From Desulfobulbaceae bacterium (lineage in GTDB: Bacteria > Desulfobacterota > Desulfobulbia > Desulfobulbales > SURF-16), in contig JAGXFQ010000020.1 in the NCBI GenBank assembly GCA_024637145.1, forward strand, positions 17,352 through 81,351: a stretch of 64,000 bases of DNA. Direction: 5' to 3'. The position numbers and the translations under genes were made by a program. Shown one piece after another: positions 21,066-56,160 of the stretch (its first letter is position 1; every line of letters begins with the position of its first letter). The notes under the pieces are model-generated. The model worked only from the letters and a program-made list of their open reading frames with translations, did no database searches and was not told where the DNA came from.

Positions 21066-21746
21066 TCAGAGGTCTTCGTGATTCTTCTTACCAAAAGCCG
21101 CCCAGGCCGCTTCATAGGTTGCCGCCAGCCTCTCCTCCAGCAGGAGACGATACGCCTCCACCTCCTCACCATCAAGCCCCTTGGGCACCTGCAGCGGTTC
21201 CCCCACCACCCACACCATCCGGGCAAAGGGCAGGGGCAGTAGGGTCTTGTCCCAGCTGCTAAAGAGCTTATAGCGGCTGAAGGCCCAGTTCATGGGCACA
21301 ATGGGAATGCCGGCCCGGCCGGCGATGATGATGGAGCCGCCCTGCACCACCTGGGCCGGGCCCTGCGAGCCGTCCGCAATAATCACCGGACTCAAGCCCT
21401 GGCGCACGGCCTTTAAAAGACCCTTGATGGCCCCCACCCCTCCCTTGCTGCGGGAGCCCCGCACCGTGGTGATCCCCTTGGACTCCATGATGCGGGCGAT
21501 AAACTCGCCATCCTTGCTGGGGCTGACCATGGCCACCATGGGCAACCGGCCGCCGGAGAGGGAGGCATAGAGGACATTATAATGCCAGAAGGTGAGGATA
21601 AAGGGTTGGCCGGAATCCAGCAATTCCTGCCAGATCTCTTTGCCGTGCATCTCTTTGCGGCAACTGGTGATGACAAAACCCATCACTACTTTATAGACCA
21701 AGGGGGCCAGAAAAAGCAGCAGTTTATGTTGCCATTCTTTCTTCAC
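21066..21746 (-). CDS. DUF374 (lysophospholipid acyltransferase-like) protein
   Basis: A characteristic DUF374 core is present ([10 protein letters not shown]...[33 protein letters not shown]...[10 protein letters not shown]). The GTG start overlaps the uvrB stop. Confidence 0.85.
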
Positions 21747-23945: not shown

Positions 23946-25721
23946 CTACTCCACGGCCATCTCCCTGAAGCCCCAGAAGGGGTAGTCGAGATGGTAGCGG
24001 GCCACCAGGCCGGGAGAATTCTCCCGGCTGGCCACCAGCCACAGGGAATTGACCCGGTTGGCGGTACGGCTGTCCACCGGGTCCCAGTCGGGCAGAAAGA
24101 CCAGGGCATTATCAGCAGTGTACTCAATATCGCCGGAGCCCTTGAACATGCCCATATGGGGCACACCGTCATAGCGCCCACCCTCCTGCCGGTTGAGCTC
24201 GGAGATGACCAGAAAGGCGACGTTATACTCGTCCCGGATCGACTCCATCTCCCGCAGCCAGGCGTCAATGCCGGTGCGGCGCTCCGAGAAATCCTTAAAG
24301 GGCAGCTTGTGCAGCGAGTCGATGACGATCACGGCGTCCTGGCGGTGGGTCTCGTGCCGCAGAAAATCAACATGGCGGCGCATGATCTCCGGGTTGAGCT
24401 GGCGGTCGTTGACCACCCGGAACCAGGACAGCATGGTGCGCAGCTCGTCTTGGGCCTGGCTGAAACGATGCTGGTCGTCGCCCTCCAGCTGGTCGTTAAA
24501 GCGGGCCACTGGCAGCCGGCTCAGACGGGCCATGGTCCGTTGGTAGATCTTCTGGCGGCCGTTCTCAAAATCATAATAGATCACCGGCACCTGGCTGGCC
24601 GCCATCTGGCTGGCCAGCTGGATGGCGAGACAGCTCTTGCCCGCCTTGGGCGCCCCACCGATGATATTGATGCCGTGGATACCGCCCAGCACCTCATCGA
24701 GACAGGGCATGCCGCTCTTTAAGGCCTGGTAGCCAGCACTCTGGCGCCGCTCCAGATTTTCCACAAAAAGGGTATATTCACGGCCGGGGGTGTTAAAGGG
24801 CGAAAAGGCCCGGGCCCCCCTGATCATTTTCTGCAGTTCCGCCCTGAAATTGTCGCCCTCCTGCTGGGCCATCCGGGCCAGACTGAAATCGCGCGGGGCC
24901 TGACCGGGCCATTTGAGGAGACGGGCCTTGAAGCCAAGCCGGCTGGCGAAAAGACGCGCCGACGCCTCTGATTCCGGCGTATGATTCACCACCATAAAAA
25001 GGGTCTCAACAGCGGCAAACCTTTGGCTGTCCAGGGCGGCCAGATCAACGGCCCGGGGTACGGCCACGCCGGGATAGCCCTGTTCCCGCAGGCAGAGGAG
25101 ATTCTCTTCGCCCTCCACCACAAAGAGGGCGCCCCCCTGGCAACGGCCGATATCCGCCAGGTTGAAGAGACGGAACTCCCCGGCTGCCAGCTCCTCTTCT
25201 CCGTACCAGAACTCTTCGCCGCTGCCCTGGGGGGCCAGACAATGGGCGGCATAGCAGCAGCCGTTTTCCTGGAAATAGGGATAGACAATATAGCGGCCGT
25301 TAAAACCGATCCGCAGCTCCTGGAGGACCGCAGGACCTACCCCGATCCGGCTGAAGCCTTCCCGCACCGCGCTGGTCATGCTGTTTTGGTACTTGAGGAT
25401 ATCCTGGTTGATATTTTTCAGGGGCCATTCAACATTGTGGACGTAAGGCTGCTGATCTGGATCATGACCGGGCACGGTGTCCGCCTCGAGCAAGCGCAGT
25501 CGGGCAAAATGGGGGGCAAAGCCACCGGCCACGCAGCGGCTCAGACAGCGGAAATAGCCGGCAAAAAACCCATCCTCATCTAAAAAGACCACCAGGGTCC
25601 CCGGCTCTTTGCGGCCCCGGCTCGCGCAAAAGGGACAGGGGGCCTTGAGCGTGGTGCCCTCAATAACCGCGCCAGGCAGATTGTCCTGATAAAAACGTGC
25701 TAATTTTTCATGCAATGCCAT
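23946..25721 (-). CDS. Zn-ribbon / TOPRIM-like / DnaB-C (RecA-fold) ATPase protein (primase-helicase-like architecture)
   Basis: N-terminal CPFC...(24 aa)...CLSRC zinc-ribbon candidate. Central TOPRIM-like segment (LFVVEGEENLLCLREQGYPGVAVP). C-terminal DnaB_C/AAA_25-like ATPase with Walker A GGAPKAGKS and Walker B AVIVIDSLH. An SD AAGGAG lies upstream of the ATG. Confidence 0.8.
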   Translation of the reverse strand: MALHEKLARFYQDNLPGAVIEGTTLKAPCPFCASRGRKEPGTLVVFLDEDGFFAGYFRCLSRCVAGGFAPHFARLRLLEADTVPGHDPDQQPYVHNVEWPLKNINQDILKYQNSMTSAVREGFSRIGVGPAVLQELRIGFNGRYIVYPYFQENGCCYAAHCLAPQGSGEEFWYGEEELAAGEFRLFNLADIGRCQGGALFVVEGEENLLCLREQGYPGVAVPRAVDLAALDSQRFAAVETLFMVVNHTPESEASARLFASRLGFKARLLKWPGQAPRDFSLARMAQQEGDNFRAELQKMIRGARAFSPFNTPGREYTLFVENLERRQSAGYQALKSGMPCLDEVLGGIHGINIIGGAPKAGKSCLAIQLASQMAASQVPVIYYDFENGRQKIYQRTMARLSRLPVARFNDQLEGDDQHRFSQAQDELRTMLSWFRVVNDRQLNPEIMRRHVDFLRHETHRQDAVIVIDSLHKLPFKDFSERRTGIDAWLREMESIRDEYNVAFLVISELNRQEGGRYDGVPHMGMFKGSGDIEYTADNALVFLPDWDPVDSRTANRVNSLWLVASRENSPGLVARYHLDYPFWGFREMAVE

Positions 25722-41704: not shown

Positions 41705-41807
41705 GGCGGCAGGCGGGACCCTCTCTTTAAAACATTTTGCCACGGCAGACCGGAGGAAAAAAATTTGTTTTCCGTAGATGCCGTGGCCACAACAAGGCTT
41801 TGCCACC

Positions 41808-42548
41808 ATGAAAATACGTCTCGACAAATTACTGGTGGCGCGCGGCCTGGCGGAAACCAGGCATAAGGCCCAGGCCGTCATCGGCAGCGGCCAGGTCCTG
41901 GTGGCGGGCCAGATAATGGACAAGGCCGGCAGCCAGGTGGATGACGGCCTGGAAATCACCATCAAGGGCAAAACCTGCCCCTTTGTCAGTCGGGGCGGCC
42001 TGAAACTGGCCAAGGGCCTTGATTTCTTTCACCTTGACCCCGGCGGCCTCATCTGCGCTGATATCGGCGCCTCCACCGGCGGCTTCACCGACTGTCTCCT
42101 GCAAAACAAGGCCGCCCTGGTTTATGCGGTGGATGTGGGCTACGGCCAGCTCGACTGGAAGTTACGGCAAGACCCCAGGGTGGTGGTCCTGGAAAGAACC
42201 AATGCCCGCTATCTCAGCCGGGAGGCTATTCCCCAGCCCCTTGACCTGGCGGTTATTGATGCGGCCTTTATCTCCATCAGGCTTCTCATTCCCGCCCTCA
42301 TCCCCCTCTTTGCCCCCAAGCCGGTGAGCATCCTCTCCCTCATCAAACCCCAATTCGAAGTGGGTAAGGGCAAAGTGGGCAAGGGCGGCGTGGTCAGCGA
42401 CCCAGCCCTCCATGACGAGGTGGTGGAATCCATCAAGAAATTCATTGCCGGCCTAGGCCTTGGCCATGAAGGGGTGACAGAATCTCCCATCCTGGGTCCC
42501 AAGGGCAATAAGGAGTTTCTCATCCATATTATAAGTAAGAACGGCTAA
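41808..42548 (+). CDS. tlyA: TlyA-family rRNA 2'-O-methyltransferase (S4 + FtsJ-like domains)
   Basis: MKIRLDKLLVARGLAETRHKAQAVI (S4 domain), SRGGLKL, and the SAM motif DIGASTGGFTD. Confidence 0.9.
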   Translation: MKIRLDKLLVARGLAETRHKAQAVIGSGQVLVAGQIMDKAGSQVDDGLEITIKGKTCPFVSRGGLKLAKGLDFFHLDPGGLICADIGASTGGFTDCLLQNKAALVYAVDVGYGQLDWKLRQDPRVVVLERTNARYLSREAIPQPLDLAVIDAAFISIRLLIPALIPLFAPKPVSILSLIKPQFEVGKGKVGKGGVVSDPALHDEVVESIKKFIAGLGLGHEGVTESPILGPKGNKEFLIHIISKNG

Positions 42549-42654
42549 CCCCGGCCAACACGGGTTCTTTGCCGCACCTCATCCCCTTCCAGTAAAAAGG
42601 GGAACAAAATCAGCGAAATATCCTCTTATCTTTTACATATCATTAAAAGAGGCT

Positions 42655-42686
42655 CCGCCGTCATTGCCTGAGACGGTGGTTTCTGG
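42655..42686 (+). terminator. Possible terminator after tlyA
   Basis: Hairpin CCGCCGTC-attgcctga-GACGGTGG (one G-U pair) followed by TTTCT. The U-tract is weak. Confidence 0.35.
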
Positions 42687-42795
42687 CGTCTTGACTTGCG
42701 GGATTTGGAATGCTATTTTAAAAAAATATTGCCGCTGTCAATCTCCCTGTAAAGTTCACCCTGAATTCTCATTTATGACGGAGCTGCCCACCATC

Positions 42796-43257
42796 ATGAA
42801 ATTTTGCAAAAAAGTATCGCCCCTTCCCCTTGCTCTCCTTCTTGCCCTGGCCATCTCTGCCCTGGCCGGGACCACCCAGGCGGCTGAATATGTCACCGTT
42901 ATCAAGGACGGGGTCAATGTCCGCTCAGCCCCTTCCACATCTGCCGAGGTCCACTGGGAGGTATTTAAGAATTTCCCCCTCAAGGTCATTGGCCGCAAGG
43001 GCAACTGGGTCAACACCGAAGATTTCGAGGGCGATACCGGCTGGATCTATGAACCCCTCCTCCAGGAAAAGCGCCAGGTCATTATCAGGGTTAAAAAGGC
43101 CAATCTCAGAGTAGGGCCGGGCCAAAATTACGAGATATCTGCCTCAGCCCTCTACGGGGTGGTCTTCACCCCGGGCCGCACAGATGGCGAATGGCTCCAG
43201 GTGACCCATATGGATGGCACCCGGGCCTGGGTCCATCAATCTCTGGTCTGGCCGTAA
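42796..43257 (+). CDS. Secreted protein with two bacterial SH3 (SH3_3) domains
   Basis: Signal peptide MKFCKKVSPLPLALLLALAISALAGTTQA, then two repeats of the V-NVRSAPS...W / L-RVGPG...W SH3b pattern. A possible TTGACT-N17-TATTTT promoter lies at 42691-42719. Confidence 0.7.
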   Translation: MKFCKKVSPLPLALLLALAISALAGTTQAAEYVTVIKDGVNVRSAPSTSAEVHWEVFKNFPLKVIGRKGNWVNTEDFEGDTGWIYEPLLQEKRQVIIRVKKANLRVGPGQNYEISASALYGVVFTPGRTDGEWLQVTHMDGTRAWVHQSLVWP

Positions 43258-43340
43258 CCTCATCATCCACCAACTCCCGGAACAATCCCCGCTGCAGAAT
43301 ACTTTATCCTTGCGCAACAGGATAGTTGAACCATAAACTT

Positions 43341-43859
43341 ATGGGCATGAAGAATACTCCCCCTCCCATCATCCTTCTGGTGGCCATGGCCGAAAATCGG
43401 GTCATCGGCAAGAACGGCTCCATCCCCTGGCACATCCCAGAGGAAGTTGCCCACTTTAAACGGACCACCATGGGCCACGCCCTGGTCATGGGCCGCAAGA
43501 CCTATGATTCCATTGGTCGCCCTTTACCGGGCCGCACCAATATCGTCATCAGCAACCAGCCCGATCTTGTTATTGAGGGGTGCAGGATGGCCGCCAGTCT
43601 GGCTGAAGCCTTTGATATCGCCAAGGAACTTCACGAAAAAATATTTGTCATCGGCGGCGGCGAGATCTTCGAACAGTGCATGATGATGGCCGACAGCATC
43701 TATCTCTCCATCATCCACCGCGCGGTTGACGGGGATGTCTTTTTCCCCCCCTTCTCCAAGACAGAATTCATAAAGACCTTTTCCGAAGAGGTAGAGGCGA
43801 CAGAACCCTACACCTTTGAGATTTACGAACGCCACGTGGCGCTCAATACCCCTGCATAA
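43341..43859 (+). CDS. folA: Dihydrofolate reductase
   Basis: IILLVAMAENRVIGKNGSIPWHIPEEVAHFKRTTMGHALVMGRKTYDSIGRPLPGRTNIVIS is a classic DHFR sequence. The start is ATG 43341 or 43347. Confidence 0.9.
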   Translation: MGMKNTPPPIILLVAMAENRVIGKNGSIPWHIPEEVAHFKRTTMGHALVMGRKTYDSIGRPLPGRTNIVISNQPDLVIEGCRMAASLAEAFDIAKELHEKIFVIGGGEIFEQCMMMADSIYLSIIHRAVDGDVFFPPFSKTEFIKTFSEEVEATEPYTFEIYERHVALNTPA

Positions 43860-44717: not shown

Positions 44718-45833
44718 ATGAGGGAGACAATGTCAGACAGAGATGCGACCATTGCCAGACTCGGCATCAACCGCCGTGACTTCATGAAATTCTGCACAGC
44801 GACAGCGACGGCCATGGGACTGTCAACCTCCTTTGCCCCCCGGATTGCCGCCGCCATCACCTCGCCCCGGCGGCCTCCGGTTATCTGGCTCCATGGTCAG
44901 GAGTGTACAGGCTGTACCGAGACCCTGCTGCGTCCCTCCCACCCCACCCTTGACCACCTCATCCTCGACCTCATCTCCCTCGACTATCACGAAACCCTCT
45001 GCGCCGGCGCCGGCCATCAGGCCGAGCATTTTCTTGCAGAGTCGGTCAGGAAAAACCAGGGTAAATTCATCCTGGTCATTGAGGGTGCTGTGCCGGTCAA
45101 GGATGGCGGCATCTACTGCCAGGTGGGGGGCACACCCTTTGTCGACACGGTCAAGGCGCTCGGCGCCCAGGCGGCGGCCGTGATTGCCATCGGCTCCTGC
45201 GCCTCGTGGGGCGGCATCCAATCAGCACCTCCCAATCCCACCGGCGCCACCGGCGTACCCAGCGTCCTCAAGGACAAAACCGTGATCACCATTCCCGGCT
45301 GCCCGCCCCACCCCCAGAATTTCCTCTCCACCGTCATCCATTTTCTGACCTTTAATAAATTACCAGCCCTGGACGACAAGGGCCGTCCCCTCTTTGCCTA
45401 TGGCCGCCTCATCCATGAAAACTGTGAACGGCGCCCCCATTTTGACGCCGGTCGTTTCGCCACAATCTTCGGCGATGAAGGACATCGCCAGGGCTACTGT
45501 CTCTTCAAGCTGGGCTGCAAAGGTCCCATCACCCATGCCAACTGCCCGAGCCTGCACTTTTGCGAGGTGGGCTCCGGCGCCTGGCCGGTAGGCACCGGCC
45601 ACCCCTGCTTCGGCTGTACCGAACAGGCTGTAGGCTTCCGCATCCCTCAATTCACCCAGGCCCATATCAGCAATCCCACCCCGGCTGCCCAGCAACCCCC
45701 GGTGGAACAGGAAAAAGAAAGCGGCCTGACTACCGGCGGAGTTGCCTTGGCCGGCGCTGCCGTTGGTGTAGCAGCAGGTGCTTCCATGATGGCCGGCAAA
45801 AAGGCGGCAGACAGAAAGGATGACGGAGAATAG
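44718..45833 (+). CDS. hybO: [NiFe] hydrogenase small subunit, Tat-exported, C-terminal membrane anchor
   Basis: Twin-arginine motif INRRDFMKF; Fe-S Cys ligand pattern (ECTGCTES-like QECTGCTETLL, GSCASWGG, PGCPP, CxxxxxxGxCxxxGC). It is the first gene of a small-HybA-HybB-large-protease order. An alternative start is ATG 44730. Confidence 0.93.
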   Translation: MRETMSDRDATIARLGINRRDFMKFCTATATAMGLSTSFAPRIAAAITSPRRPPVIWLHGQECTGCTETLLRPSHPTLDHLILDLISLDYHETLCAGAGHQAEHFLAESVRKNQGKFILVIEGAVPVKDGGIYCQVGGTPFVDTVKALGAQAAAVIAIGSCASWGGIQSAPPNPTGATGVPSVLKDKTVITIPGCPPHPQNFLSTVIHFLTFNKLPALDDKGRPLFAYGRLIHENCERRPHFDAGRFATIFGDEGHRQGYCLFKLGCKGPITHANCPSLHFCEVGSGAWPVGTGHPCFGCTEQAVGFRIPQFTQAHISNPTPAAQQPPVEQEKESGLTTGGVALAGAAVGVAAGASMMAGKKAADRKDDGE

Positions 45834-45836
45834 GGC

Positions 45837-46796
45837 ATGGCAATCACCAGACGAAATCTCTTAAAGGCCTCGGTCTGCGGTGGAACGCTGCTGGCCTGCG
45901 GCAGCTCCGCTCAGGCCGCCAGAAGGGTGGAAATGGCCCCGGGAGCCTTGGGCATGCTCTACGACTCCACCCTCTGCATTGGTTGCCAGGTCTGCATGGT
46001 TGGCTGCAAAAAAGCCAACAACATGAAGCCTGACCCAGCCGACAACAACCCCTCCTGGGACAACCCCCGCGACCTCTCCTCCCGCACCCTTACAGTTATT
46101 AAGAAATTTGAAGAGGGCAGCGGCCGTCGACCCAACCAGGAGAAGGACGGTTTCGCCTATATCAAACAGAACTGTATGCACTGCGCCGACCCGTCCTGCG
46201 TCTCAGCCTGTCCGGTCTCAGCCTTGACCAAGGACAACAAAACCGGCATTGTCTCCTATAACAAAAAGGCCTGCATTGGCTGTCGCTACTGCCAGATTTC
46301 CTGCCCCTACAACATCCCCAAATTCCAATGGGACAACCCTCTGCCCCAGATTGTCAAATGCCAACTTTGCAGTCATCTCATTGCCAAAGGCGGCATTGCC
46401 GCCTGTTGTGCTGCCTGCCCCACCGGCGCCTCCCTCTTTGGCCCTGTGGAACTCCTCCAACAGGAGGCCAAAAAACGCCTGCTATACACCCCTGGGGAGG
46501 TCTACGAATTCCCTCTCCACGATATCAGTACCGGCAAAACAGTCTCTCACCAATCAGCACAATACATTGATCATATCTATGGTGAAAAAGAGCTGGGCGG
46601 CAGTCAGGTCATGATGCTTAGCGCCGTAGATTTCCAGAAGCTGGGGATGACGAAACTGCCGGACGAGTCCTACGCCAGCATAACAGAAAATATCCAGCAT
46701 ACCCTTTACAAGGGCATGCTCCTGCCCATTGCCCTGCTTGGCGGCCTTGTCTATTTCGTTAAGAAAAATGCGGAGAACCATCACAATGACGAGTGA
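45837..46796 (+). CDS. hybA: Hydrogenase-2-type Fe-S electron-transfer subunit HybA (4x [4Fe-4S], Tat signal, C-terminal TM)
   Basis: Tat motif ITRRNLLKA; ferredoxin Cys clusters (CIGCQVCMVGC, CMHCADPSCVSACP, CIGCRYCQISCP, CQLCSH...CCAACP); hydrophobic C-terminus. Confidence 0.9.
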   Translation: MAITRRNLLKASVCGGTLLACGSSAQAARRVEMAPGALGMLYDSTLCIGCQVCMVGCKKANNMKPDPADNNPSWDNPRDLSSRTLTVIKKFEEGSGRRPNQEKDGFAYIKQNCMHCADPSCVSACPVSALTKDNKTGIVSYNKKACIGCRYCQISCPYNIPKFQWDNPLPQIVKCQLCSHLIAKGGIAACCAACPTGASLFGPVELLQQEAKKRLLYTPGEVYEFPLHDISTGKTVSHQSAQYIDHIYGEKELGGSQVMMLSAVDFQKLGMTKLPDESYASITENIQHTLYKGMLLPIALLGGLVYFVKKNAENHHNDE

Positions 46797-47937
46797 GAAC
46801 GCAAAGCCTCTGGGCTCAAAAATCTTAAGCTGGCAATTTCTTGTTCTCCTGGGCATTTTCTGCCTCAGTGTCTTTTTTATCGCCAAACGCTTTATGTTTG
46901 GACTGGGCGCAGTCACCAACATGAATGATGGCTACCCTTTCGGGATCTGGATTACCATTGACGTGGTGATAGGCACCGCCTTTGCCTGCGGCGGTTACAC
47001 CATGGCCCTGCTGGTCTACGTGGCAAACAAAGGTAAATACCACCCCTTGGTTCGGCCGGCGCTGATGGCCTCGGTGTTCGGCTACACCCTGGCTGGCGTC
47101 TCCGTGTTCATCGATATTGGCCGCTACTGGCAGATGTACAATATGTTCCTGCCCAAATTTATCAACCTGAACTCGGTCATGTTCGAGGTCGGTCTTTGCA
47201 TCGCCACCTATACCCTGGTGCTGTGGATTGAAATTTCCCCCGTCTTTCTTGAAAAATTCGGTGCCAAAAAGGCGAAAAAGACCTTGAACAACGTTCTCTT
47301 TTTCTTTATTGCCCTAGGAGTTCTGCTCCCCACCATGCACCAATCCTCCCTGGGAACCCTCATGGTCATTGTCGGTTACAAGCTTTCACCACTCTGGCAG
47401 ACCAATTTTCTCCCCCTGCTCTTCCTGCTCTCTGCTATTTCCATGGGATACGGGGTGGTCATTTTTGAGGGCACCATTGCCAACAACGAGTTCAATACCC
47501 CTAAAGAAACGCGCATCATGAGCCAGGTTGCCTATGTAATGAATATCTCCTTAGCCATCTTTCTGGTTATCCGTTTTGGCGACCTTCTCCTGCGCGGTGC
47601 CCTGCCTTTGGCCTTCAAGGGTAATCTGGTCAGCAATATGTTCCTCCTGGAAAATGCTCTGCTCATTACGGCGGCCATCCTCCTCTTTTCAACAAAAATA
47701 CGGGCCACCGCCTTTGGCCAGTATACCGGCGCGGTGCTCCTTTTGGCTGGCTCAGCTCTGTTCCGCTACAACACCTATATCATCGGCTTTAATCCTGGCA
47801 CCGGCCACCATTATTTCCCGGCCGTGGGTGAGATCATGATTACCCTGGGCATCATCTCTTTTGAGCTCATGGCTTACTTAATATTTATTAAAACCCTGCC
47901 GGTTCTGCCCTCCCGATCCAAGGTAACAGCAGGCTAA
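46786..47937 (+). CDS. hybB: Hydrogenase membrane subunit HybB (NrfD/PsrC-like, quinone-interacting)
   Basis: About 10 TM helices, no Cys clusters, positioned between hybA and the large subunit. ATG 46786 overlaps the hybA stop. Confidence 0.88.
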   Translation: MTSENAKPLGSKILSWQFLVLLGIFCLSVFFIAKRFMFGLGAVTNMNDGYPFGIWITIDVVIGTAFACGGYTMALLVYVANKGKYHPLVRPALMASVFGYTLAGVSVFIDIGRYWQMYNMFLPKFINLNSVMFEVGLCIATYTLVLWIEISPVFLEKFGAKKAKKTLNNVLFFFIALGVLLPTMHQSSLGTLMVIVGYKLSPLWQTNFLPLLFLLSAISMGYGVVIFEGTIANNEFNTPKETRIMSQVAYVMNISLAIFLVIRFGDLLLRGALPLAFKGNLVSNMFLLENALLITAAILLFSTKIRATAFGQYTGAVLLLAGSALFRYNTYIIGFNPGTGHHYFPAVGEIMITLGIISFELMAYLIFIKTLPVLPSRSKVTAG

Positions 47938-48004
47938 TTTTTTGAACAAGATACCTCCGCATTATTAATCGCCTACACGGCATGCAGCCCTCAGGAGTCT
48001 TTCC

Positions 48005-49708
48005 ATGGCTAAACGAATAGTCGTTGACCCCATTACCAGAATTGAAGGCCATTTACGCATCGAGTGCGAAATCGACAAGGGCCATGTCAGCAAGGCCTGG
48101 TCATCCGGCACCATGTGGCGCGGTATCGAGCTCATTCTCCAGGGCAAAGACCCACGGGAAGCCTGGCTCTATACCCAGCGCATCTGCGGGGTCTGCACCA
48201 CGGTGCATGCCATAGCCTCGGTGCGGGCCGTGGAGAACGCCCTGGGCCTTGAGGTGCCGATGAATGCCCAGCATATCCGCAACATCATCATCGCCGCCCA
48301 CGGCATCTTTGACCATATCGTCCACTTCTACCACCTCTCCGCCCTCGACTGGGTCGATATCGTCTCCGCCACCAAGGCCGACGCCAAGGCCACCGCCGCC
48401 CTGGCCGCTAAACTGTCGCCCTGGCCCAATAATTCGGCCCAGGAGTTCAAGAACGTTCAGGATCGCCTCAAGAAGTTTGTCGCCACCGGCCAGCTCGGTG
48501 TCTTTGCCAGTGGCTACTGGGGCCACCCGGCCATGAAGCTGACCCCGGAGGTCAATCTGCTGGCGACGGCCCATTATTTCCAGGCCCTTGACTACCAGCG
48601 CAAGATCAACAAGGTGGTGGCCATCCTGGGCAGCAAGACCCCCCACATCCAGAACCTGGCCGTCGGCGGTGTGGCCAACCCCATCAACCCGGACAGCCAG
48701 TCCACTCTGACCGTGGAGCGTCTCTACTACATCAAGACCCTGATCGACGAGGTTGGCGATTTTATCAAAAATGTCTATCAGATCGATGTCGCTGCCATCG
48801 GCGGGTTTTATGCCGACTGGACCGGCTACGGCGCCGGTGTGACCAACTACCTGTCGGTACCCGAATTCCCCCAGGATACCAAGGGGGAATCCTTTGCCCT
48901 GCCCGGCGGCTACATCCCCAACAAGGATCTTGGTGCCTTTCAGGCCATCAGCACCTTTAACGATTCCTATTTCAGCGACAACGTCAAGGAAAGCCATAAG
49001 CACGCCTATTATAAGGGCGACGCCAACCTCCATCCCTGGCAGGGTGAAACCGATCCAGACTTTACCGGCTTCCAGGACGACGGCAAATACTCTTGGGTCA
49101 AGGCCCCGACCTTCCAGGGCAAGCCGGCCCAGGTCGGCCCCCTGGCCAATGTCCTGGCCATGTATGTCGCCGGCCATAAGCCCACCATCGACTATACCAG
49201 CAAGGTCCTGGAGCTGGCCGGTTCCATTGCCGGCAGCAAGCTCGGCCTCGATGTCCTGCACTCTACCATCGGCCGCCATGCCGCCAGGGCCGTGCGCGCC
49301 GGCGTCCTCCACGACACCGTGGTCGCCGAGTGGGACGCCCTGATTGCCAATATCGACAGGGGTGACTATGCGACCTTCAACGAACCGGTCTTCCCCAAGG
49401 GCGAGATCCAGGGGGTCGGCTTCCACGAGGCCCCCCGGGGCGTGCTCTCCCATTGGGTGGTCATCGAAGACGGCAAGATCAAGAACTACCAGTGCGTGGT
49501 ACCGTCGACCTGGAATGCCGGGCCCCGCAACGACAAGGATGAACTAGGGCCCTATGAGGCCTCGCTGCTCGGCAATCCGGTGGCCGACCCGGAAAATCCC
49601 CTGGAAGTGCTGCGCACCATCCACTCCTTTGATCCCTGTCTGGCCTGCGCCATCCATCTCTTTGACCCCAAGCGCAACGAGCTCGTCAAGGTCCGTACCA
49701 ATGTCTGA
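48005..49708 (+). CDS. hybC: [NiFe] hydrogenase large subunit
   Basis: N-terminal PITRIEGHLRIE and the Ni-Fe ligand motif QRICGVCTTVH. The C-terminal DPCLACAIH is followed by a 16-aa extension (LFDPKRNELVKVRTNV) of the type removed by the maturation protease. All four ligands are Cys, so this is not a NiFeSe enzyme. Confidence 0.95.
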   Translation: MAKRIVVDPITRIEGHLRIECEIDKGHVSKAWSSGTMWRGIELILQGKDPREAWLYTQRICGVCTTVHAIASVRAVENALGLEVPMNAQHIRNIIIAAHGIFDHIVHFYHLSALDWVDIVSATKADAKATAALAAKLSPWPNNSAQEFKNVQDRLKKFVATGQLGVFASGYWGHPAMKLTPEVNLLATAHYFQALDYQRKINKVVAILGSKTPHIQNLAVGGVANPINPDSQSTLTVERLYYIKTLIDEVGDFIKNVYQIDVAAIGGFYADWTGYGAGVTNYLSVPEFPQDTKGESFALPGGYIPNKDLGAFQAISTFNDSYFSDNVKESHKHAYYKGDANLHPWQGETDPDFTGFQDDGKYSWVKAPTFQGKPAQVGPLANVLAMYVAGHKPTIDYTSKVLELAGSIAGSKLGLDVLHSTIGRHAARAVRAGVLHDTVVAEWDALIANIDRGDYATFNEPVFPKGEIQGVGFHEAPRGVLSHWVVIEDGKIKNYQCVVPSTWNAGPRNDKDELGPYEASLLGNPVADPENPLEVLRTIHSFDPCLACAIHLFDPKRNELVKVRTNV

Positions 49709-50204
49709 GCCGACTATTCTTGTGCTGGGGGTGGGCAATATCCTCCTCGGTGACGAGGGGGCCGGGGTCAAGGTGGTCGATCTCCTTGAGGAGCGCTACC
49801 GCTTCAGCGATCAGGTCGAGTTTGTTGACGGCGGCACCGCCGGACTCGAACTCCTCTCCTGCCTGGACGATAAGCAGCATGTCATCATTATTGACGCCAT
49901 CCTCGGTGCGGAACCGCCCGGCACCATCAAAAAGATGGTCCTGGACAATGCCCCCGCTTTTTTTCAGAACCGCATCTCCCCCCACCAGCTTGGCCTTGCC
50001 GAGATGCTGTCCTGCGCCGCCATGACCGACAGCCTTCCCGACCATATCAGCCTGTACGGCATCATCCCCGAATCCCTGGAGACCGGCCTGGAGCTCACCC
50101 AGACAGTGGCCGCAGCGGTGGAGAAAATCAGCCGCCAGGTCCTTGACGATCTCCAGATCCTGGGGGTCGAAATCGCCAAACGCCAGCAGAGAGTTTCGGC
50201 CTGA
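49701..50204 (+). CDS. hybD: Hydrogenase maturation endopeptidase (HybD/HyaD family)
   Basis: ILVLGVGNILLGDEGAGVKVVDLL..., with FVDGGTAG and IIIDAI motifs. ATG 49701 overlaps the large-subunit stop. Confidence 0.9.
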   Translation: MSEPTILVLGVGNILLGDEGAGVKVVDLLEERYRFSDQVEFVDGGTAGLELLSCLDDKQHVIIIDAILGAEPPGTIKKMVLDNAPAFFQNRISPHQLGLAEMLSCAAMTDSLPDHISLYGIIPESLETGLELTQTVAAAVEKISRQVLDDLQILGVEIAKRQQRVSA

Positions 50205-50289
50205 GCGCTTAAGAAGTTTGACCTTTCCCTGCCATTACAGGTAATCTGGTCCTCTGAGTATCCCCCTACAATTTAACACCTCATCCCCT

Positions 50290-50529
50290 ATGTGCCTGGC
50301 CGTTCCTGGAAAAATTATTGAGATCTTTGAAGAGGCCAGCCTGAAGATGGGTCGTCTCGACTATGGCGGCACCATCAACAAGGCCTGCCTGGAGTATATT
50401 CCCGAGGCCAAGGTTGGCCTCTATGCCCTGGTTCACGCCGGCTTTGCCATTTCACTGCTCGACGAGGAAGAGGCCCAAAAATCCCTGGCTGCCTGGCAGG
50501 AGCTCGAGGAAAAGATGGGGGCCCGGTGA
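50290..50529 (+). CDS. hypC: Hydrogenase maturation chaperone HypC, copy 2
   Basis: MCLAVPGKIIEI... 79 aa. Its stop overlaps the hypD GTG start (GTGA). Confidence 0.9.
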   Translation: MCLAVPGKIIEIFEEASLKMGRLDYGGTINKACLEYIPEAKVGLYALVHAGFAISLLDEEEAQKSLAAWQELEEKMGAR

Positions 50530-51617
50530 AATATCTCACTGAATTCCGCGACCCGGCCCCAGCCAAGGCCCTGCTGACCGGAATCCACAGCACCGTGACC
50601 AGGCCCTGGACCCTGATGGAGGTCTGCGGCGGCCAGACCCATGCCATTGTCAGAAGCGGCCTAGACCAGCTTCTGCCTGCCTCCCTCCACCTGGTCCATG
50701 GCCCGGGCTGCCCGGTGTGCGTCACCCCCATTTCCTTTATTGATAAGGCCATCAACCTGGCCGGCCGGCCGGAGATTATTCTCACCACCTTCGGCGATAT
50801 GATGCGGGTGCCGGGCAGTGCCGGCAACCTCCTTGATGCCAAGGGCCAGGGGGCGGATGTCCGCATGGTCTATTCGGTGCTGGAGGCCGTCAGTCTGGCC
50901 CAGGACAATCCCCAGCAGCAGATCGTCTTTTTCGGGGTCGGCTTTGAGACCACGGCACCGGGTAACGCCATGGCCATCCTCCAGGCCCAGAGGCTCGGCC
51001 TGGAGAACTTCACCATCCTGGCCTGCCACGTCCTGGTGCCGCCGGCCCTGCGGGCCCTGCTCGACAACCCGGCAAACAAGGTAGACGGCTATCTGGCCGC
51101 GGGCCATGTCTGCACGGTGATGGGCCTTGCGGAGTATCAAGACATTGTTGATCACTATAAGGTGCCCATCATTGCCACCGGCCTCGAGCCGGTGGATATC
51201 CTGGCCGGCATCCTGGCCGCCGTCAACCAGCTTGAGAGGGGAGAGTCGCGCCTGGAAAACGAGTATAAACGCTCGGTAACCGCCACCGGCAACCTTCAGG
51301 CCCGAGAAACCATTGACCAGGTCTTTCGGCGCTGCGACCGGACCTGGCGCGGCATCGGTCTCCTGCCCCGGAGCGGCCTGGCCATCCGGCCACAGTTTGC
51401 CGCCTTTGATGCCGAGCAGAAATTCCAGCCCCGGGCCGCCCCAGAGACCGACAACGGCTGCCTGGCCGGCCAGGTTCTTCAAGGGCTGCTTAAACCACCA
51501 GACTGTCCCTTTTTCGGCACGCGCTGCAAACCGGAACACCCCTTCGGCGCCCCCATGGTTTCCGGCGAAGGGGCCTGTGCCGCCTATTACAGGTATCAGG
51601 GACTAAGGTCCGGTTGA
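50526..51617 (+). CDS. hypD: Hydrogenase maturation protein HypD
   Basis: EVCGGQTHAIV, HGPGCPVCVTP, FFGVGFETTAP and GEGACAAYY motifs. Confidence 0.95.
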   Translation: MKYLTEFRDPAPAKALLTGIHSTVTRPWTLMEVCGGQTHAIVRSGLDQLLPASLHLVHGPGCPVCVTPISFIDKAINLAGRPEIILTTFGDMMRVPGSAGNLLDAKGQGADVRMVYSVLEAVSLAQDNPQQQIVFFGVGFETTAPGNAMAILQAQRLGLENFTILACHVLVPPALRALLDNPANKVDGYLAAGHVCTVMGLAEYQDIVDHYKVPIIATGLEPVDILAGILAAVNQLERGESRLENEYKRSVTATGNLQARETIDQVFRRCDRTWRGIGLLPRSGLAIRPQFAAFDAEQKFQPRAAPETDNGCLAGQVLQGLLKPPDCPFFGTRCKPEHPFGAPMVSGEGACAAYYRYQGLRSG

Positions 51618-51792
51618 ATGACGCATGTCGCATTTTGAAGTGTCAACGGCAACGTTATTGCCGCCGGCGCGAAAATGACTCCAAAAAAGATCGCGAGGAT
51701 GGCAGCAACCTCCTCAGCAGATTATGGCTCAACTTCTGCGGTTTAAAATTCCTTATTCAACATTCGTCATTCACCACCGTGGTTCAGACAAA

Positions 51793-52836
51793 ATGAAAAA
51801 TGAGATAAAAGACTTCCCTGACGCCCTGGCAAAAGAGGCCATCACCCTGGCCCACGGCAGCGGCGGCAAATTTTCCGCTGAACTCATAGAGCGCTGCATG
51901 CTGCCCCGCTTTGGCAACGAACACCTTAACCGCCTGGAAGATCAGGCTATTTTGGCCATGGGCAGCGGCCGAATCGCTTTTTCCACCGACTCCTATGTGG
52001 TCTCCCCCCTCTTCTTCCCGGGCGGCGACATCGGCGAGCTGGCCGTCAACGGCACGGTGAATGACGTGGCCATGGCCGGGGCCAGGCCCCTCTATCTGAG
52101 CCTGGCCCTTATCCTGGAAGAGGGTCTGCCCTTTGCCGATCTGGAGCGGATCCTTGACTCCATCAAAAGGGCGGCCGACGAGGCCGGGGTGGTCATTGTC
52201 ACCGGCGACACCAAGGTGGTGGAACGAGGAAGCTGCGACAAAATCTTCATCAACACCAGCGGCATCGGCATCGTGGCCGACCATGTCCGCCTGGGGGCCG
52301 ATCAGATCCAGGCGGGTGACAAGATCATCATCTCCGGCACCCTGGCTGATCACGGCATGACCATTCTTACCGCCCGCCACCAGCTCTCCCTTGAAAATGC
52401 AGTACAGAGCGACACCGCGCCCCTGGCCGATCTGGTCCAGACCATGCTGGCGGCGGCCCCCAACCTCCATGCCCTGCGTGACCCCACCCGGGGGGGCGTG
52501 GCCATGACCTTGAATGAATTTGCCCAGCAGACCGGGCTCGGCTTCAACTTGAGGGAAGAGGCCCTACCCGTTAATAATGCCGTGCGCTGCGTCTGTGAGA
52601 TTCTGGGGATTGATCCCCTCTATGTGGCCAATGAGGGCAAACTGATCGGGGTGGTCAGCCCGGATGAGGCGGACAGCCTGCTTGCTGCCATGCAGGGCCA
52701 CCCGCGGGGCGAGAAGGCGGCGATCATCGGCACGGTGGGCAAAGAAAATCCCGGCCTGGTCACCCTGACCACCACCCTGGGGGCCAGCCGGGTGGTGGAT
52801 ATGCCGGTGGCCGAACAGCTGCCGCGCATCTGCTGA
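51793..52836 (+). CDS. hypE: Hydrogenase maturation protein HypE
   Basis: LAHGSGGK, AIR-synthase-like fold motifs, and the diagnostic C-terminal PRIC. ATG 51793 chosen; the ORF-track start at 51724 adds non-homologous residues. Confidence 0.93.
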   Translation: MKNEIKDFPDALAKEAITLAHGSGGKFSAELIERCMLPRFGNEHLNRLEDQAILAMGSGRIAFSTDSYVVSPLFFPGGDIGELAVNGTVNDVAMAGARPLYLSLALILEEGLPFADLERILDSIKRAADEAGVVIVTGDTKVVERGSCDKIFINTSGIGIVADHVRLGADQIQAGDKIIISGTLADHGMTILTARHQLSLENAVQSDTAPLADLVQTMLAAAPNLHALRDPTRGGVAMTLNEFAQQTGLGFNLREEALPVNNAVRCVCEILGIDPLYVANEGKLIGVVSPDEADSLLAAMQGHPRGEKAAIIGTVGKENPGLVTLTTTLGASRVVDMPVAEQLPRIC

Positions 52837-52844
52837 AATAAAAG

Positions 52845-53216
52845 CTACTGCAGGGCAGCCAGCGAGCGCAGCAAAACCGCCAGCGCCCCTGCCAGCTCAT
52901 GGAGCAGCCCCTTTATCTCCTTGCCACCTTTTCCCTGGGCAATGGCCTTCTCCACGGCCAGACAGGCCTGAGGCACGGCAGTGGCACCAATACTGGCAGA
53001 GGCCCCTTTCAAGGTATGGGCCGCCATACGGAGGCCCTGTAGATCGCCCTTGCTGAGCAATGCCGCCATTTCCGCGGCCTTCGCCCTGTTCTTTATGGCG
53101 AATTTAAGGAGAATAGGTCGCAACATCTCTGCGGAAATGCCTGTCCGCTCCATGGTTTCGGCAAGATCGATTCCTGGTAATTGTGGTGGCAGCGCCTGGT
53201 CTTCAGATATCTTCAT
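52845..53216 (-). CDS. Stand-alone histidine phosphotransfer (Hpt) domain protein
   Basis: Hpt signature around the phospho-His (LRMAAHTLKGASASIGA) in a roughly 120-aa helical protein. ATG 53216 is 1 nt after the helicase stop, with an SD GGAGG at 53226-53230. Confidence 0.8.
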   Translation of the reverse strand: MKISEDQALPPQLPGIDLAETMERTGISAEMLRPILLKFAIKNRAKAAEMAALLSKGDLQGLRMAAHTLKGASASIGATAVPQACLAVEKAIAQGKGGKEIKGLLHELAGALAVLLRSLAALQ

Positions 53217-53217
53217 C

Positions 53218-56160
53218 TTAACCAACCTCCGGCCCCCTGCCGGGAAGGGCCAGGGTCAACGGGCAGCGCACGGTGTGGCCCGCCTTGTTTTGAAAAAGAA
53301 GATAGTTGTTGTTAAGGGCAAAGAGGAAGAGATCACGGGTGATCTCCACATCCTGGCGGCAATAGGTGATGATCTTGTCGATCCTCCCCTCCTTATACCA
53401 TTTGAGGGCCTGGAGACCGTCAGCGCTTTTTTGATGGCCCAGGGTCATGGTGGCCAAACGGTCCAGACTGAGGCGATAGCCCAGACGGCCCTTGACCTCT
53501 TCCAGGAGATCGATGGTGGGCAGGAGATGGAGCCTGGCATTGCCATAGGCTGACAAGACCATATTATCAAAGCGTTTATTGTTGAATCCCACCACCAGGT
53601 CCCGGCCACAAAGATAGTCGAGAAGCTCCACCATTTCCCCCTCCCGGAAGATCAGGAAATCATCAAGCTCGCCGTCATAGACCACGGCCACCGATACCCC
53701 CATGCGCTCAGCCCGATGCCAGCCCCCCACCTCGGCAGCGGAACGCTGGGTCTCCACATCAAACACCGCCCACTTGCGGGGCAGAAGAGGAGGCACCGCC
53801 GGGGACTCCTGGGTGGCGGACATTGCCCGGCTCTCCTTCTTCTGCACCTCCAGGCGCGGCTGGTCACCGGCCAGCAGGTCTTCCAGGACAAGACGGGCCG
53901 CCTCCTTGTCAATGGGCCGGTTGCCGGAGCCGCATTTGGGCGAGTGGACACAGGAGGGGCAGCCCGTTTCGCAGGGACAGGAGTCGATGGCTGTATGGGC
54001 GGCCATAAGCAGCTCGTCAAGGCGGCCAAACGCCTCCCGACAGAGACCGATGCCGCCGGGGCAGCCGTCATAGATGAAGATGGCGGATCCCTGCAGCTGG
54101 GGGTGGAAGGGATAAGAGATGCCGCCGATATCATTGCGATCACAGAGCACCATAAGGGGAAAGACGCCGATCACGGCATGCTCCACGGCATGGATGCCCC
54201 CCATGAAATGGACCTTCTGCGCCTGCAGGCGGGCCTCAAGGGCACTGGGGATCTCAAACCAGAGGCCATGGGTCTCAAAGACCTGGGGCGGCAGATCCAG
54301 GCTCTGGGTACTGAAGGTCTTCTGACCGCGGATGAGCTTGCGCTGAAAACCGGTGACCTGATCCGTGACCTTGAGCCGGCCGAAGCAGGCCTTGATATTG
54401 CGCACCTGTATCTCAGAAAAAACCTCCAGGATCTCGGTCTCTTTGGTGGCCAGGGCCCGGGTGAAATAATGGGCATCCTTGCGCCGCACCAGGACCTGGC
54501 TGCCTTCCAGATCAAGCTCCACCACCTCCCAGGTCTGGCCGTGATGGAGATAGAGGGCGCCGGGATGGCATTCCTTGCAGCAGCGGCCCGCATCAATATC
54601 GCCCAGCCGCTGGTTATCATCCATCTTCCTGATCACCAGGGGCTGGCCGCTGCCCCGTAGTTCCACCTGGCGGTGGGGATATTTCCGGACCGTGAAATAT
54701 CGTTTGCCGTTTTTCGCCTGCAGGAGCTGGCCCGTGGCGCAGAGTGACGCCACGGCCTTGTGCACCGCCGGGCTGGCCAGCAGGGGTTCATCCCTGTGCA
54801 GGGGCGACTCGGCGGCGGCGCAGAGCAGGTGGCGGGCGGAGATCTCCTCATTGTCCGGATTAAGAACTGCCGATTCCACCTTTCTCTGAAAAAACTGCTC
54901 GGGGTTCTTGAGGAAATAGTGGTCCAGGGCGTCTTCCTGGCCCACCATGATAATCAGGCTTTCCTGCTGCCGTCTGCCCACCCGGCCGCCGCGCTGCCAG
55001 GTGGACATGATGGAGCCTGGATAGCCCACCATGATGCAAATATCCAGGGAGCCGATATCAATGCCCAGCTCCAGGGCCGAGGTGGTCACCACCCCGTAGA
55101 GCTCGCCGCTGGCCAGCTGCTGCTCGATCTGCCGGCGCTCCTCCGGCAGAAAACCGGCCCGATAGGCGGTGAGCTTCTCCTGCAGCTCCCCCAGCCTCTG
55201 GCCGGTCCACAGGGCAACCAGCTCGGTGATCTTGCGCGACTGGGTATAGACGATGGTGCGCAGGCCCCGCTTTAAGGCCGCCTCCAGCAGCTGACTGGCA
55301 GCATGAGCTGCCCCGTCCCAGGGATCAAAAAAAAGGAAATGGCTCGGGGCCCGGGGGGCGCCGCTTGTGGTCACCACCTGCGGGGGGCGACCGATGAGGT
55401 GCTCACCCAGCTCGGCCGGATTGCCGATGGTGGCCGAAAAGAGCAGAAACTGCGGATTGCTGCCGTAGAGGGCGCAGATGCGGCGCAGGCGCCGGAGCAC
55501 CCAGGCCATGTGGGAGCCGAAGACGCCGCGATAGGAGTGGACCTCGTCAATGACCACATGGGTCAGATTGCTGAAAAATTCGGCCCACTTCTCATGGTAG
55601 CCCAGGAAGGAGAGATGGAGCATCTCCGGGTTGGAGATGATGATGTTGGCCGGATTTTCGCGCAGCTTCTTGCGCCGATAGCTTGAGGTATCGCCATCGC
55701 ACACCGCAGCCGTAAAACTTCTGCCAACCGGCAGCTGGGGGGCCATGGCTTCCAGGCGCCGGAGCTGGTCCTGGGCCAGGGCCTTTAAGGGGAAGAGATA
55801 AAGGGCCCGGCTAGCCGGCTCTGCCATGATCTTTTCCAGCACCGGCATGGTATAGATCAGGCTCTTACCGCTGGCCGTGGGGGTGGCCACCAGGAGATCC
55901 TCGCCCTGGCGGATAAGGTCCATGGCCCGGGCCTGATGGCTGTAGAGCCGCTCCGCCCCTTCCCGGGCCATGATCCGGCGCAGCTCAGCAGGCAGGGGCC
56001 GGGCCAGTTCGGCATAGCACGCCTCCTGGCCGGCCAGAAACTCGTGGTGGACCACCTGGGGCCCGAAACGGCTGGAGCCCTTGAGGGCGGCCAGATATTC
56101 GACGACATTTTGGGGGCTGACTGAAGGCATCTCCACCTGAGCATCTGAGAGGAAGGACAA
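53218..56160 (-). CDS. MrfA/YprA-like DExH helicase with DUF1998 zinc cluster, fused to a C-terminal DEDD-type (RNase-H-fold, MrfB/YprB-like) exonuclease
   Basis: Helicase motifs: LYSHQ, ATPTASGKSLIY, VVIDEVHSYRG, FSAT, WQRGGRVGRR. DUF1998 Cys cluster: CPCETGCPSCVHSPKCG. The last roughly 185 aa carry the exonuclease motifs FDVET, VGFNNKRFDN and YCRQDVEITRD. The start is TTG 56160 or ATG 56130. Confidence 0.9.
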   Translation of the reverse strand: MSFLSDAQVEMPSVSPQNVVEYLAALKGSSRFGPQVVHHEFLAGQEACYAELARPLPAELRRIMAREGAERLYSHQARAMDLIRQGEDLLVATPTASGKSLIYTMPVLEKIMAEPASRALYLFPLKALAQDQLRRLEAMAPQLPVGRSFTAAVCDGDTSSYRRKKLRENPANIIISNPEMLHLSFLGYHEKWAEFFSNLTHVVIDEVHSYRGVFGSHMAWVLRRLRRICALYGSNPQFLLFSATIGNPAELGEHLIGRPPQVVTTSGAPRAPSHFLFFDPWDGAAHAASQLLEAALKRGLRTIVYTQSRKITELVALWTGQRLGELQEKLTAYRAGFLPEERRQIEQQLASGELYGVVTTSALELGIDIGSLDICIMVGYPGSIMSTWQRGGRVGRRQQESLIIMVGQEDALDHYFLKNPEQFFQRKVESAVLNPDNEEISARHLLCAAAESPLHRDEPLLASPAVHKAVASLCATGQLLQAKNGKRYFTVRKYPHRQVELRGSGQPLVIRKMDDNQRLGDIDAGRCCKECHPGALYLHHGQTWEVVELDLEGSQVLVRRKDAHYFTRALATKETEILEVFSEIQVRNIKACFGRLKVTDQVTGFQRKLIRGQKTFSTQSLDLPPQVFETHGLWFEIPSALEARLQAQKVHFMGGIHAVEHAVIGVFPLMVLCDRNDIGGISYPFHPQLQGSAIFIYDGCPGGIGLCREAFGRLDELLMAAHTAIDSCPCETGCPSCVHSPKCGSGNRPIDKEAARLVLEDLLAGDQPRLEVQKKESRAMSATQESPAVPPLLPRKWAVFDVETQRSAAEVGGWHRAERMGVSVAVVYDGELDDFLIFREGEMVELLDYLCGRDLVVGFNNKRFDNMVLSAYGNARLHLLPTIDLLEEVKGRLGYRLSLDRLATMTLGHQKSADGLQALKWYKEGRIDKIITYCRQDVEITRDLFLFALNNNYLLFQNKAGHTVRCPLTLALPGRGPEVG

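Follow-up and report, generated by a model that had tools for sequence, protein, structure and literature searches.

The question raised by this locus was whether a DNA helicase and a phosphorelay protein encoded side by side form one functional unit. The stretch analysed, 64,000 nucleotides (nt) of contig JAGXFQ010000020.1 from a Desulfobulbaceae bacterium and here called the window, carries on its minus strand a gene for a helicase-exonuclease fusion protein (53218..56160) and, one nucleotide past its stop codon, a gene for a stand-alone Hpt phosphotransfer protein (52845..53216). A first-pass annotation, made from the sequence alone, had proposed that the pair could be a signal-gated unit of DNA repair or nucleic-acid surveillance. 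The analyses described here favoured an ordinary repair helicase with a built-in exonuclease, beside which lies a recent and patchily distributed Hpt neighbour, rather than a helicase-phosphorelay module, and we assign this reading a probability of roughly 0.78.

The fusion gene was delimited from the list of open reading frames (ORFs), Pfam matches, an identical database protein (P0001) and a match to the MrfA structure 6znp. The ORF at 53218-56160 (minus strand) encodes 980 amino acids (aa) if read from the TTG at 56160, and P0001, which is 100% identical to the fusion, is annotated as a protein of 970 aa starting from the ATG at 56130. The start codon is ambiguous, and the 970-aa form is probably to be favoured over the TTG start. 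P0001 comes from a 98.6 kb contig that is probably metagenome-assembled. The N-terminal part contains a superfamily 2 (SF2) DExH helicase core with RecA1 and RecA2 domains (about aa 74-397; 54970..55941), recognized by Pfam DEAD (aa 74-248, E 8.5e-34) and Helicase_C (aa 292-397, E 4e-13) and by the motifs ATPTASGKS (Walker A), DEVH, SAT and QRGGRVGRR. Residue invariance was judged on alignments of 16 and 26 homologues, and the motif residues T93-S100 (Walker A), D205/E206/H208, S242-T244 and Q389-R396 were invariant in the alignment of 16. The core is followed on the same strand by a winged-helix domain (aa 434-503; 54652..54861; Pfam WHD_HRQ1, E 8.5e-10, 40 bits vs. a cut-off of 27) and by an MrfA Zn-binding domain (MZB/DUF1998; aa 659-738; 53947..54186; Pfam MZB, E 6e-24), whose four-Cys cluster (C728, C730, C734, and C737) was invariant among the aligned homologues.

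The closest solved structure was that of Bacillus subtilis YprA/MrfA (6znp, E 4.3e-154), in which residues 8-732 of the 751 of chain 6znp_A align with residues 19-740 of the fusion; a profile search raised this match to E 1.5e-194. Because 6znp aligns end to end with the helicase part of the fusion, this part genuinely belongs, by sequence, to the MrfA/YprA family of Roske et al. (PMC7797055). It shares with B. subtilis MrfA (YprA; 6ZNP/6ZNQ/6ZNS) the order of an N-terminal region, RecA1, RecA2, winged helix and OB-CON-MZB with four cysteines, and differs from it by about 215 additional aa (linker and exonuclease) at the C-terminus. The NCBIfam model TIGR03817 (DECH_helic, hypothetical equivalog) scored 722.2 bits over residues 37-763 and missed its cut-off of 874.1, which, at the level of sequence scores, places the fusion in a subfamily related to TIGR03817 and not in that equivalog.

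Between the helicase and the C-terminal domain lies a linker (about aa 764-795; 53776..53871, minus strand) of approximately 30-35 residues, which had no consensus in the homologue alignments. A linker before the exonuclease had been annotated, and it exists, although as a variable segment that is not markedly Pro/Ser-rich and is shorter than the 45 or so Pro/Ser-rich residues originally given. The first 20 or so residues of the exonuclease-domain model had a low predicted local distance difference test score (pLDDT 53-71), and the linker is probably flexible according to this model.

The C-terminal domain (aa 796-980; 53221..53775, minus strand) matched Pfam RNase_H_2 (PF13482; aa 844-944, E 3e-5, 24.5 bits vs. 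a cut-off of 22), which we take to be the YprB RNase-H-like family. Its candidate catalytic residues, D801, E803, D865, Y933, and D937, were invariant in fused and stand-alone homologues, and motif III reads Y933-C-R-Q-D937 with no nearby His. AlphaFold2 modelling of the C-terminal 210 residues gave a pLDDT of 90.9, and the top PDB matches of this model in Foldseek were family-B polymerase proofreading domains (5mdn, Tgo, KOD, and 4flu), with the 3'-5' domain of T7 DNA polymerase also among the best matches (E down to 5e-7, probability 1.0). Since these matches are polymerase proofreading domains, the modelled C-terminal domain has a DEDD exonuclease fold of the DEDDy type. In accordance with these results, the first-pass description of a single ORF combining a DExH helicase, a DUF1998 four-Cys cluster and a C-terminal DEDDy exonuclease was borne out by Pfam, by the invariant motifs and by the structural model.

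The same annotation had called this domain the MrfB partner of the helicase. MrfB of B. subtilis (YprB; 8UN9) resembles the window domain in being a DEDD 3'-5' exonuclease tied to an MrfA helicase, and both are closest to the proofreading domains of archaeal family-B polymerases (PMC11194089; 4flu). Manthei et al. (PMC11194089), who solved the MrfB core as 8UN9, describe MrfB as a DEDDh enzyme (His258) in which a long N-terminal insertion is combined with three TPR repeats at the C-terminus. MrfB is a separate protein, whereas the window domain is covalently fused to its helicase, is of the DEDDy type (Tyr933) and has neither the TPR repeats nor the insertion: the fusion ends about 40 residues past motif III, the model shows the exonuclease core and a short beta hairpin alone, and no TPR match to the fusion was obtained with Pfam. 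Against PDB sequences, 8UN9 was not matched at E <=10 by phmmer or by a 19-sequence profile, and the top 60 matches of a full-length fusion profile were all helicases. The DEDD core fused to an MrfA-type helicase stands, and the label "MrfB partner" is overstated, because the domain is DEDDy and not DEDDh, is devoid of TPR and has no sequence match to 8UN9. As judged by these features and by the searches against PDB sequences, the window domain falls short of a clear-cut MrfB orthologue and is only loosely MrfB-like.

When the domain was scored against 1.84 billion representative sequences, 2299 relatives were obtained at E <=0.001. They include fused forms of 920-1180 aa as well as complete stand-alone proteins of 178-260 aa, which keep all five catalytic residues and are 35-48% identical to the fused domain. 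One stand-alone DEDDy exonuclease (L093 3537-4112, with further cases in L094 and L095; the numbers designate loci used in the comparison) has 191 aa and 47% identity to the fused domain; its gene overlaps those of a DUF2400 protein on the upstream side and of a glutamine amidotransferase on the downstream side, and no helicase is encoded nearby. Because of this form without a helicase neighbour, the DEDDy module also exists outside MrfA, and annotations as "MrfB-fused" may pool different exonuclease recruitments.

The fused architecture was found to be widespread. The 120 best protein clusters listed (59-100% identity), that is, at least 120 clusters of fused proteins, all had lengths of 862-1086 aa and covered 87-99% of the query. 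In a scan of one genome per species, 598 of 600 stretches encoded a relative of the fusion, and 80 of these 598, from species-level genomes, were taken for a survey of gene neighbourhoods. The 80 loci span Desulfobulbales, Desulfobacterales and Desulfovibrionales, with complete chromosomes among them, and match residues 18-970, approximately, of the fusion, except for a few that end at contig edges. Desulfobacterota normally encode the helicase and the exonuclease in this fused form. One of the contigs (L004, JAIWHJ010000007.1) is binned as "Promethearchaeota archaeon" and encodes a helicase-exonuclease 61% identical to that of the window; it is probably a mis-binned Desulfobacterota contig.

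The fusion had first been taken as undescribed, which does not hold. Fusions of MrfA to MrfB homologues were already mentioned by Burby & Simmons (bioRxiv 10.1101/426304) and again in a survey of the YprA family (bioRxiv 10.1101/2025.09.15.676423), in both cases without biochemical characterization of any of them, and they are of the same kind as the window protein, namely a repair-branch YprA with an MrfB-type exonuclease. The helicase-exonuclease fusion is not new, and the window protein is one of hundreds. The terms Hpt, histidine or two-component do not occur in the YprA-family survey (10.1101/2025.09.15.676423), nor is a nearby Hpt or two-component gene mentioned by Burby & Simmons. Among better known enzymes, human WRN (RecQ plus DEDD exonuclease) also joins an SF2 helicase and a DnaQ-superfamily 3'-5' exonuclease in one polypeptide, and Staphylococcus aureus DinG (PMC12345164), with an N-terminal DEDD exonuclease and an SF2 helicase, has the same working logic as the window fusion. 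WRN and DinG differ from it in belonging to other helicase families and in having the exonuclease at the N-terminus, and their fusions are not homologous to that of the window.

The second gene encodes a protein of 123 aa (52845..53216, minus strand; the ORF list gives the small ORF as 52845-53225), which contains HTLKGASASIGA and matched Pfam Hpt (PF01627; E 1.5e-10, 41.6 bits vs. a cut-off of 24.6). The phospho-accepting residue, His67, lies in an HTLKG motif (codon 53018-53016). The AlphaFold2 model is an all-helical bundle (pLDDT 91.7), and its best Foldseek match was HptB of Pseudomonas aeruginosa (7c1i; TM 0.73/0.78), followed by Hpt domains of hybrid kinases, plant AHPs and YPD1; the top matches were all Hpt. 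Like HptB (7C1I), YPD1, ShpA and the plant AHPs, the protein is a single-domain helical bundle of the 115-125 aa class with an HxxKG motif, although it is only about 23% identical in sequence to HptB. H67, K70, and G71 were invariant across six Hpt orthologues (HxLKG), and the ratio of non-synonymous to synonymous rates (dN/dS) was 0.10-0.33 across four of them. By these sequence features, the gene encodes a real, selected and canonical single-domain Hpt protein, with a predicted phosphotransfer role. A word-indexed search of the wider Hpt family gave three relatives only.

The junction between the two genes (53214..53230, minus strand), read from the sequence, consists of GGAGG at 53230-53226 within the tail of the helicase gene, the TAA stop codon at 53220-53218, one G and the Hpt ATG at 53216-53214; on the minus strand it reads ccGGAGGttggtTAAgATG, also written as ...ccGGAGGttggtTAAgATGaag. 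The first-pass description of this junction, with its ribosome-binding motif inside the helicase gene, and of a 123-aa canonical Hpt was therefore confirmed by the sequence, by Pfam and by the HptB-like fold. Gaps of 1 nt between co-directional genes are common in bacteria and statistically unremarkable.

The statement that the window is devoid of histidine kinase and receiver genes likewise held at the sensitivity applied. With CheY, Spo0F, the PhoB receiver and EnvZ as phmmer queries, a search less sensitive than Pfam, no six-frame ORF of the window gave a match below E 0.1, and neither a receiver nor a histidine kinase domain turned up in the 20 window ORFs scanned with Pfam. In the fusion protein itself, no receiver, kinase or other phospho-acceptor domain was found with Pfam. 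A stand-alone Hpt without a nearby kinase is usual in multistep phosphorelays, and because the hybrid kinases are generally encoded elsewhere, the "orphan" status of this Hpt carries little functional weight. The signalling-type genes seen in the window were those of a NIT-domain (nitrate/nitrite-sensing) methyl-accepting chemotaxis protein (15823-17748, minus strand) and of a FapA protein (8288-9739, minus strand), with no others.

The linkage of the two genes was then assessed among relatives. The Hpt gene was present beside the helicase gene in six genomes, the window included, whose helicases are at least 81% identical to that of the window. In the window and in L081 (helicase 97% identical to that of the window) the gap after the helicase stop is 1 nt, and this tight junction is confined to these two of the six carriers. 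The remaining four have spacers of 118-219 nt: 118 nt in L086 (84% identity), 137 nt in L082 (81%), 173 nt in L090 (83%) and 219 nt in L092 (86%). Two further close relatives have no Hpt, and their helicase genes are followed by a convergent hypE, at 148 nt in L091 (85% identity) and at 67 nt in L088 (80% identity); L091 nests within the carrier clade in the helicase tree. Hidden Markov models built from four and then from six Hpt orthologues found no Hpt within 6 kb on either side of the helicase in the 80 more distant loci, and L001 has none beside the helicase. The sole match of these models there was weak (E 0.008) and concerned a 362-aa ORF of L061 located 2.7 kb away. Ten co-directional ORFs found elsewhere directly past the helicase stop matched Rrf2, CxxCxxCC, TatA or nothing in Pfam, and none matched Hpt.

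The spacers are themselves informative. In three carriers (L082, L086, and L092) they are AT-rich, with a GC content of 0.36-0.43 vs. 0.55-0.64 for the locus, and these three spacer regions have in common an 18-nt AT-rich element, TTAACNNTTTGATTTTAA, at positions 7873-7890 of L082, 8932-8949 of L086 and 5489-5506 of L092 (L083-L085 and L087 are also listed). The element was found nowhere else in 95 loci, nor in the window, even when three mismatches were allowed. It begins the Hpt side of the junction region, located at the helicase stop or immediately beyond it and preceding the Hpt gene; because it overlaps the last codons of the helicase gene in L086 and L092 and lies within the intergenic spacer in L082, TTAACNNTTTGATTTTAA is conserved at the DNA level. 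It may be a promoter of the Hpt gene or a regulator-binding site. Sigma-70-like hexamers overlap it in two carriers, L082 and L092. In L086 the helicase gene is followed by a terminator-like hairpin with a T-run behind it. All of these are weak consensus matches.

The two genes also differ in their rates of change. Between the window/L081, L082 and L086 lineages the Hpt proteins are 49-55% identical and the helicases 81-84%, and the non-synonymous rate of the Hpt gene is about 3.5 times that of the helicase gene. The survey of orthologue neighbourhoods did not reveal the conserved linkage that a joint unit would imply: the adjacency was found in six close genomes only, was lost in L091 and was absent from the 80 loci. 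The Hpt adjacency is narrow and loose, the Hpt is not a conserved partner of the helicase, and translational coupling is not conserved among the carriers.

Under the favoured reading, the fusion would be a housekeeping DNA-repair enzyme in which an MrfA/YprA helicase carries a DEDDy 3'-5' exonuclease on a flexible linker. By homology with B. subtilis MrfA, a 3'-to-5' SF2 helicase that takes part in the repair of mitomycin-type adducts, the helicase would load on single-stranded DNA and move 3' to 5' under the OB-CON-MZB canopy, unwinding the damaged strand; the tethered exonuclease would degrade the 3' end of the released strand, and the flexible linker would stand in for the non-covalent contact between MrfA and MrfB. 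The Hpt most likely operates in an unrelated phosphorelay, passing phosphate from one to the other of hybrid histidine kinases and response regulators whose genes lie elsewhere in the genome. Its gene would have been gained once, as an independently expressed gene downstream of the helicase, in a narrow Desulfurivibrionaceae-like clade, with one later loss in L091. Loss of the spacer in the window/L081 lineage would then have brought the Hpt start against the helicase stop, and in this lineage the Hpt is presumably transcribed and translated together with the helicase. On this reading the tight coupling of the window is a recent local rearrangement. The locus shows the recent origin of an operon-like junction, for which the loss of a promoter-bearing spacer is the likely route, and it cautions that a single tight gene junction is a poor guide to function.

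Several observations weigh against this reading. The promoter and terminator scans were weak, with counts close to those in shuffled sequence (in the window near the shuffle expectation). The Hpt was kept beside the helicase in six genomes whether the hydrogenase cluster that follows it in the window is present or not (L090 is without it), and this retention is some evidence of linkage beyond chance. The 1-nt junction and the internal Shine-Dalgarno sequence in the window and L081, as read from the sequence, imply co-expression of helicase and Hpt. The repair role of the fusion is extrapolated from a Firmicute, and distant MrfA homologues do not cross-complement B. subtilis (Burby & Simmons, bioRxiv 10.1101/426304).

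The strongest of the alternatives is the signal-gated repair or surveillance unit, in which the Hpt would relay a phosphorelay signal that switches the activity or the recruitment of the helicase-exonuclease. The features that speak for it are those just listed, namely co-directional adjacency in six related genomes whatever lies further downstream and the 1-nt junction with its internal Shine-Dalgarno sequence in two of them, together with purifying selection on the Hpt. They are outweighed by the lack of an Hpt in the nested L091, in L088 and in every one of the 80 more distant fusion loci, by the spacers of 118-219 nt (three of them AT-rich) with promoter- or terminator-like features in four of the six carriers, by a faster-changing Hpt and by a helicase-exonuclease that has no receiver, kinase or other phospho-acceptor domain. 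A link between DUF1998 and Hpt was also absent from the literature searched. We consider this unit unlikely; if the Hpt did regulate the enzyme, it would represent a new link between phosphorelay and DNA repair, against which the comparative evidence argues.

A related idea is that the Hpt was recruited as a true accessory within its clade, tying, for example, repair or nucleic-acid surveillance to a phosphorelay. If so, the spacer loss in the window lineage would reflect selection for stoichiometric co-expression. We regard such a recruitment as very unlikely, and give equally little credence to the joint reading in which the exonuclease is an independently recruited DEDDy module and the Hpt a genuine clade-level accessory.

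Instead of repair, the helicase-exonuclease could serve anti-phage defence, as the central component of a system akin to DISARM, Druantia or ARMADA, and the PADLOC models BrxHI, DruE, DpdF/J, and DrmA do match its helicase core. These matches were limited to the generic SF2 core (BrxHI aa 61-564; DruE in fragments), whereas repair-type MrfA is a far better match that extends across the entire helicase. None of the partners specific to such systems (DrmB, DrmC or a methyltransferase; DruA-D/H; BrxHII with PglX; Vsr or PLD nuclease domains) was found near the gene, which is surrounded by a TPP enzyme, hyp/hydrogenase, DHFR and SH3 genes, and its syntenic position is conserved in 80 species-level genomes, unlike that of mobile defence islands. 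In the YprA-family survey (10.1101/2025.09.15.676423), moreover, helicases that are associated with MrfB or fused to it fall in the repair branch, and a defence role appears quite improbable.

A further possibility concerns the genes on the other side of the Hpt. In the window, hypE (51724..52836, plus strand; 370 aa, Pfam AIRS and AIRS_C) is convergent with the Hpt gene and is the last gene of a [NiFe] hydrogenase/hyp cluster. The stops of hypE and the Hpt gene are 8 nt apart, and hypE is context, outside the helicase-Hpt unit. The Hpt might belong functionally to this cluster, as in a hydrogen-sensing two-component circuit, since it lies between helicase and hypE in the window, L081, L082, and L086, with convergent stops 5-8 nt apart. 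This is scarcely credible, because L090 has the Hpt without the hydrogenase cluster and with DHFR, SH3 and a methyl-accepting chemotaxis protein downstream instead, because hypE adjoins the helicase in L088 and L091 where there is no Hpt, and because the Hpt and hyp genes are on opposite strands. An arrival of the Hpt gene together with the hydrogenase cluster was rejected on the same evidence from L090. In L081, hypE was called as two ORFs (8381-9413), with AIRS_C in one of 159 aa and AIRS in the other of 196 aa, which suggests a frameshift or pseudogene; the hypE of the window is intact.

An artefact of assembly or sequencing behind the fusion or the tight junction has practically no probability and was ruled out. 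Nothing was found in its favour beyond a source contig that is probably metagenome-assembled, the full-length fused ORF recurs in over 120 independent clusters and in 80 genomes, complete chromosomes included, and the 1-nt junction is repeated in the independent assembly L081 at 97% protein identity.

Genomic context analyses placed the helicase of the window among a TPP enzyme, a CxxCxxCC protein, the Hpt and the hyp/hydrogenase genes. The Hyb-type [NiFe] hydrogenase and maturation cluster (44718-52836, plus strand, with 41778-43859; Pfam) comprises a small subunit, an Fe-S protein, an NrfD-like protein, a large subunit, HycI and HypC/D/E, and it separates DHFR, SH3 and TlyA genes from the Hpt and helicase genes. 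Homologues of the SH3 protein and DHFR are located at 42664-43859 of the window. Across Desulfobacterota the gene that follows the fusion is, as a rule, convergent and unrelated to it. In 23 of the 80 loci a convergent gene for an SH3-domain protein lies downstream of the helicase, and DHFR is its downstream neighbour in L001 and L090. The SH3 protein and DHFR are ancestral downstream neighbours of the helicase, and because one or the other directly adjoins it elsewhere, the hydrogenase cluster looks like an insertion between the helicase side and the DHFR/SH3 genes.

On the other side of the helicase, a divergently oriented cassette separates it from the TPP enzyme in three Hpt carriers, L082 (1346-4703), L086 (2222-5860) and L092 (554-2432). 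The cassette encodes an HTH_3 (XRE-type) protein of 311-316 aa and has two or three small ORFs without annotation. It also includes a gene for a VWA protein, which was seen in L082 and L086; the contig of L092 stops short of that position. The window and L081 are without this HTH_3/VWA cassette.

A scan of the window with Rfam found nothing. About 30 kb from the helicase lie other genes of DNA-metabolism type (UvrB and DnaB_C): UvrB (21743-23737, minus strand) adjoins a 591-aa protein (23946-25721, minus strand) whose Cys-rich N-terminus is accompanied by a DnaB_C/AAA_25 ATPase domain. A 388-aa ORF (7034-8200, plus strand) joins a YbeY endoribonuclease domain (aa 34-142, 2e-34) to PdxJ, which is complete (aa 152-384, 1.6e-101), and looks like a YbeY-PdxJ gene fusion.

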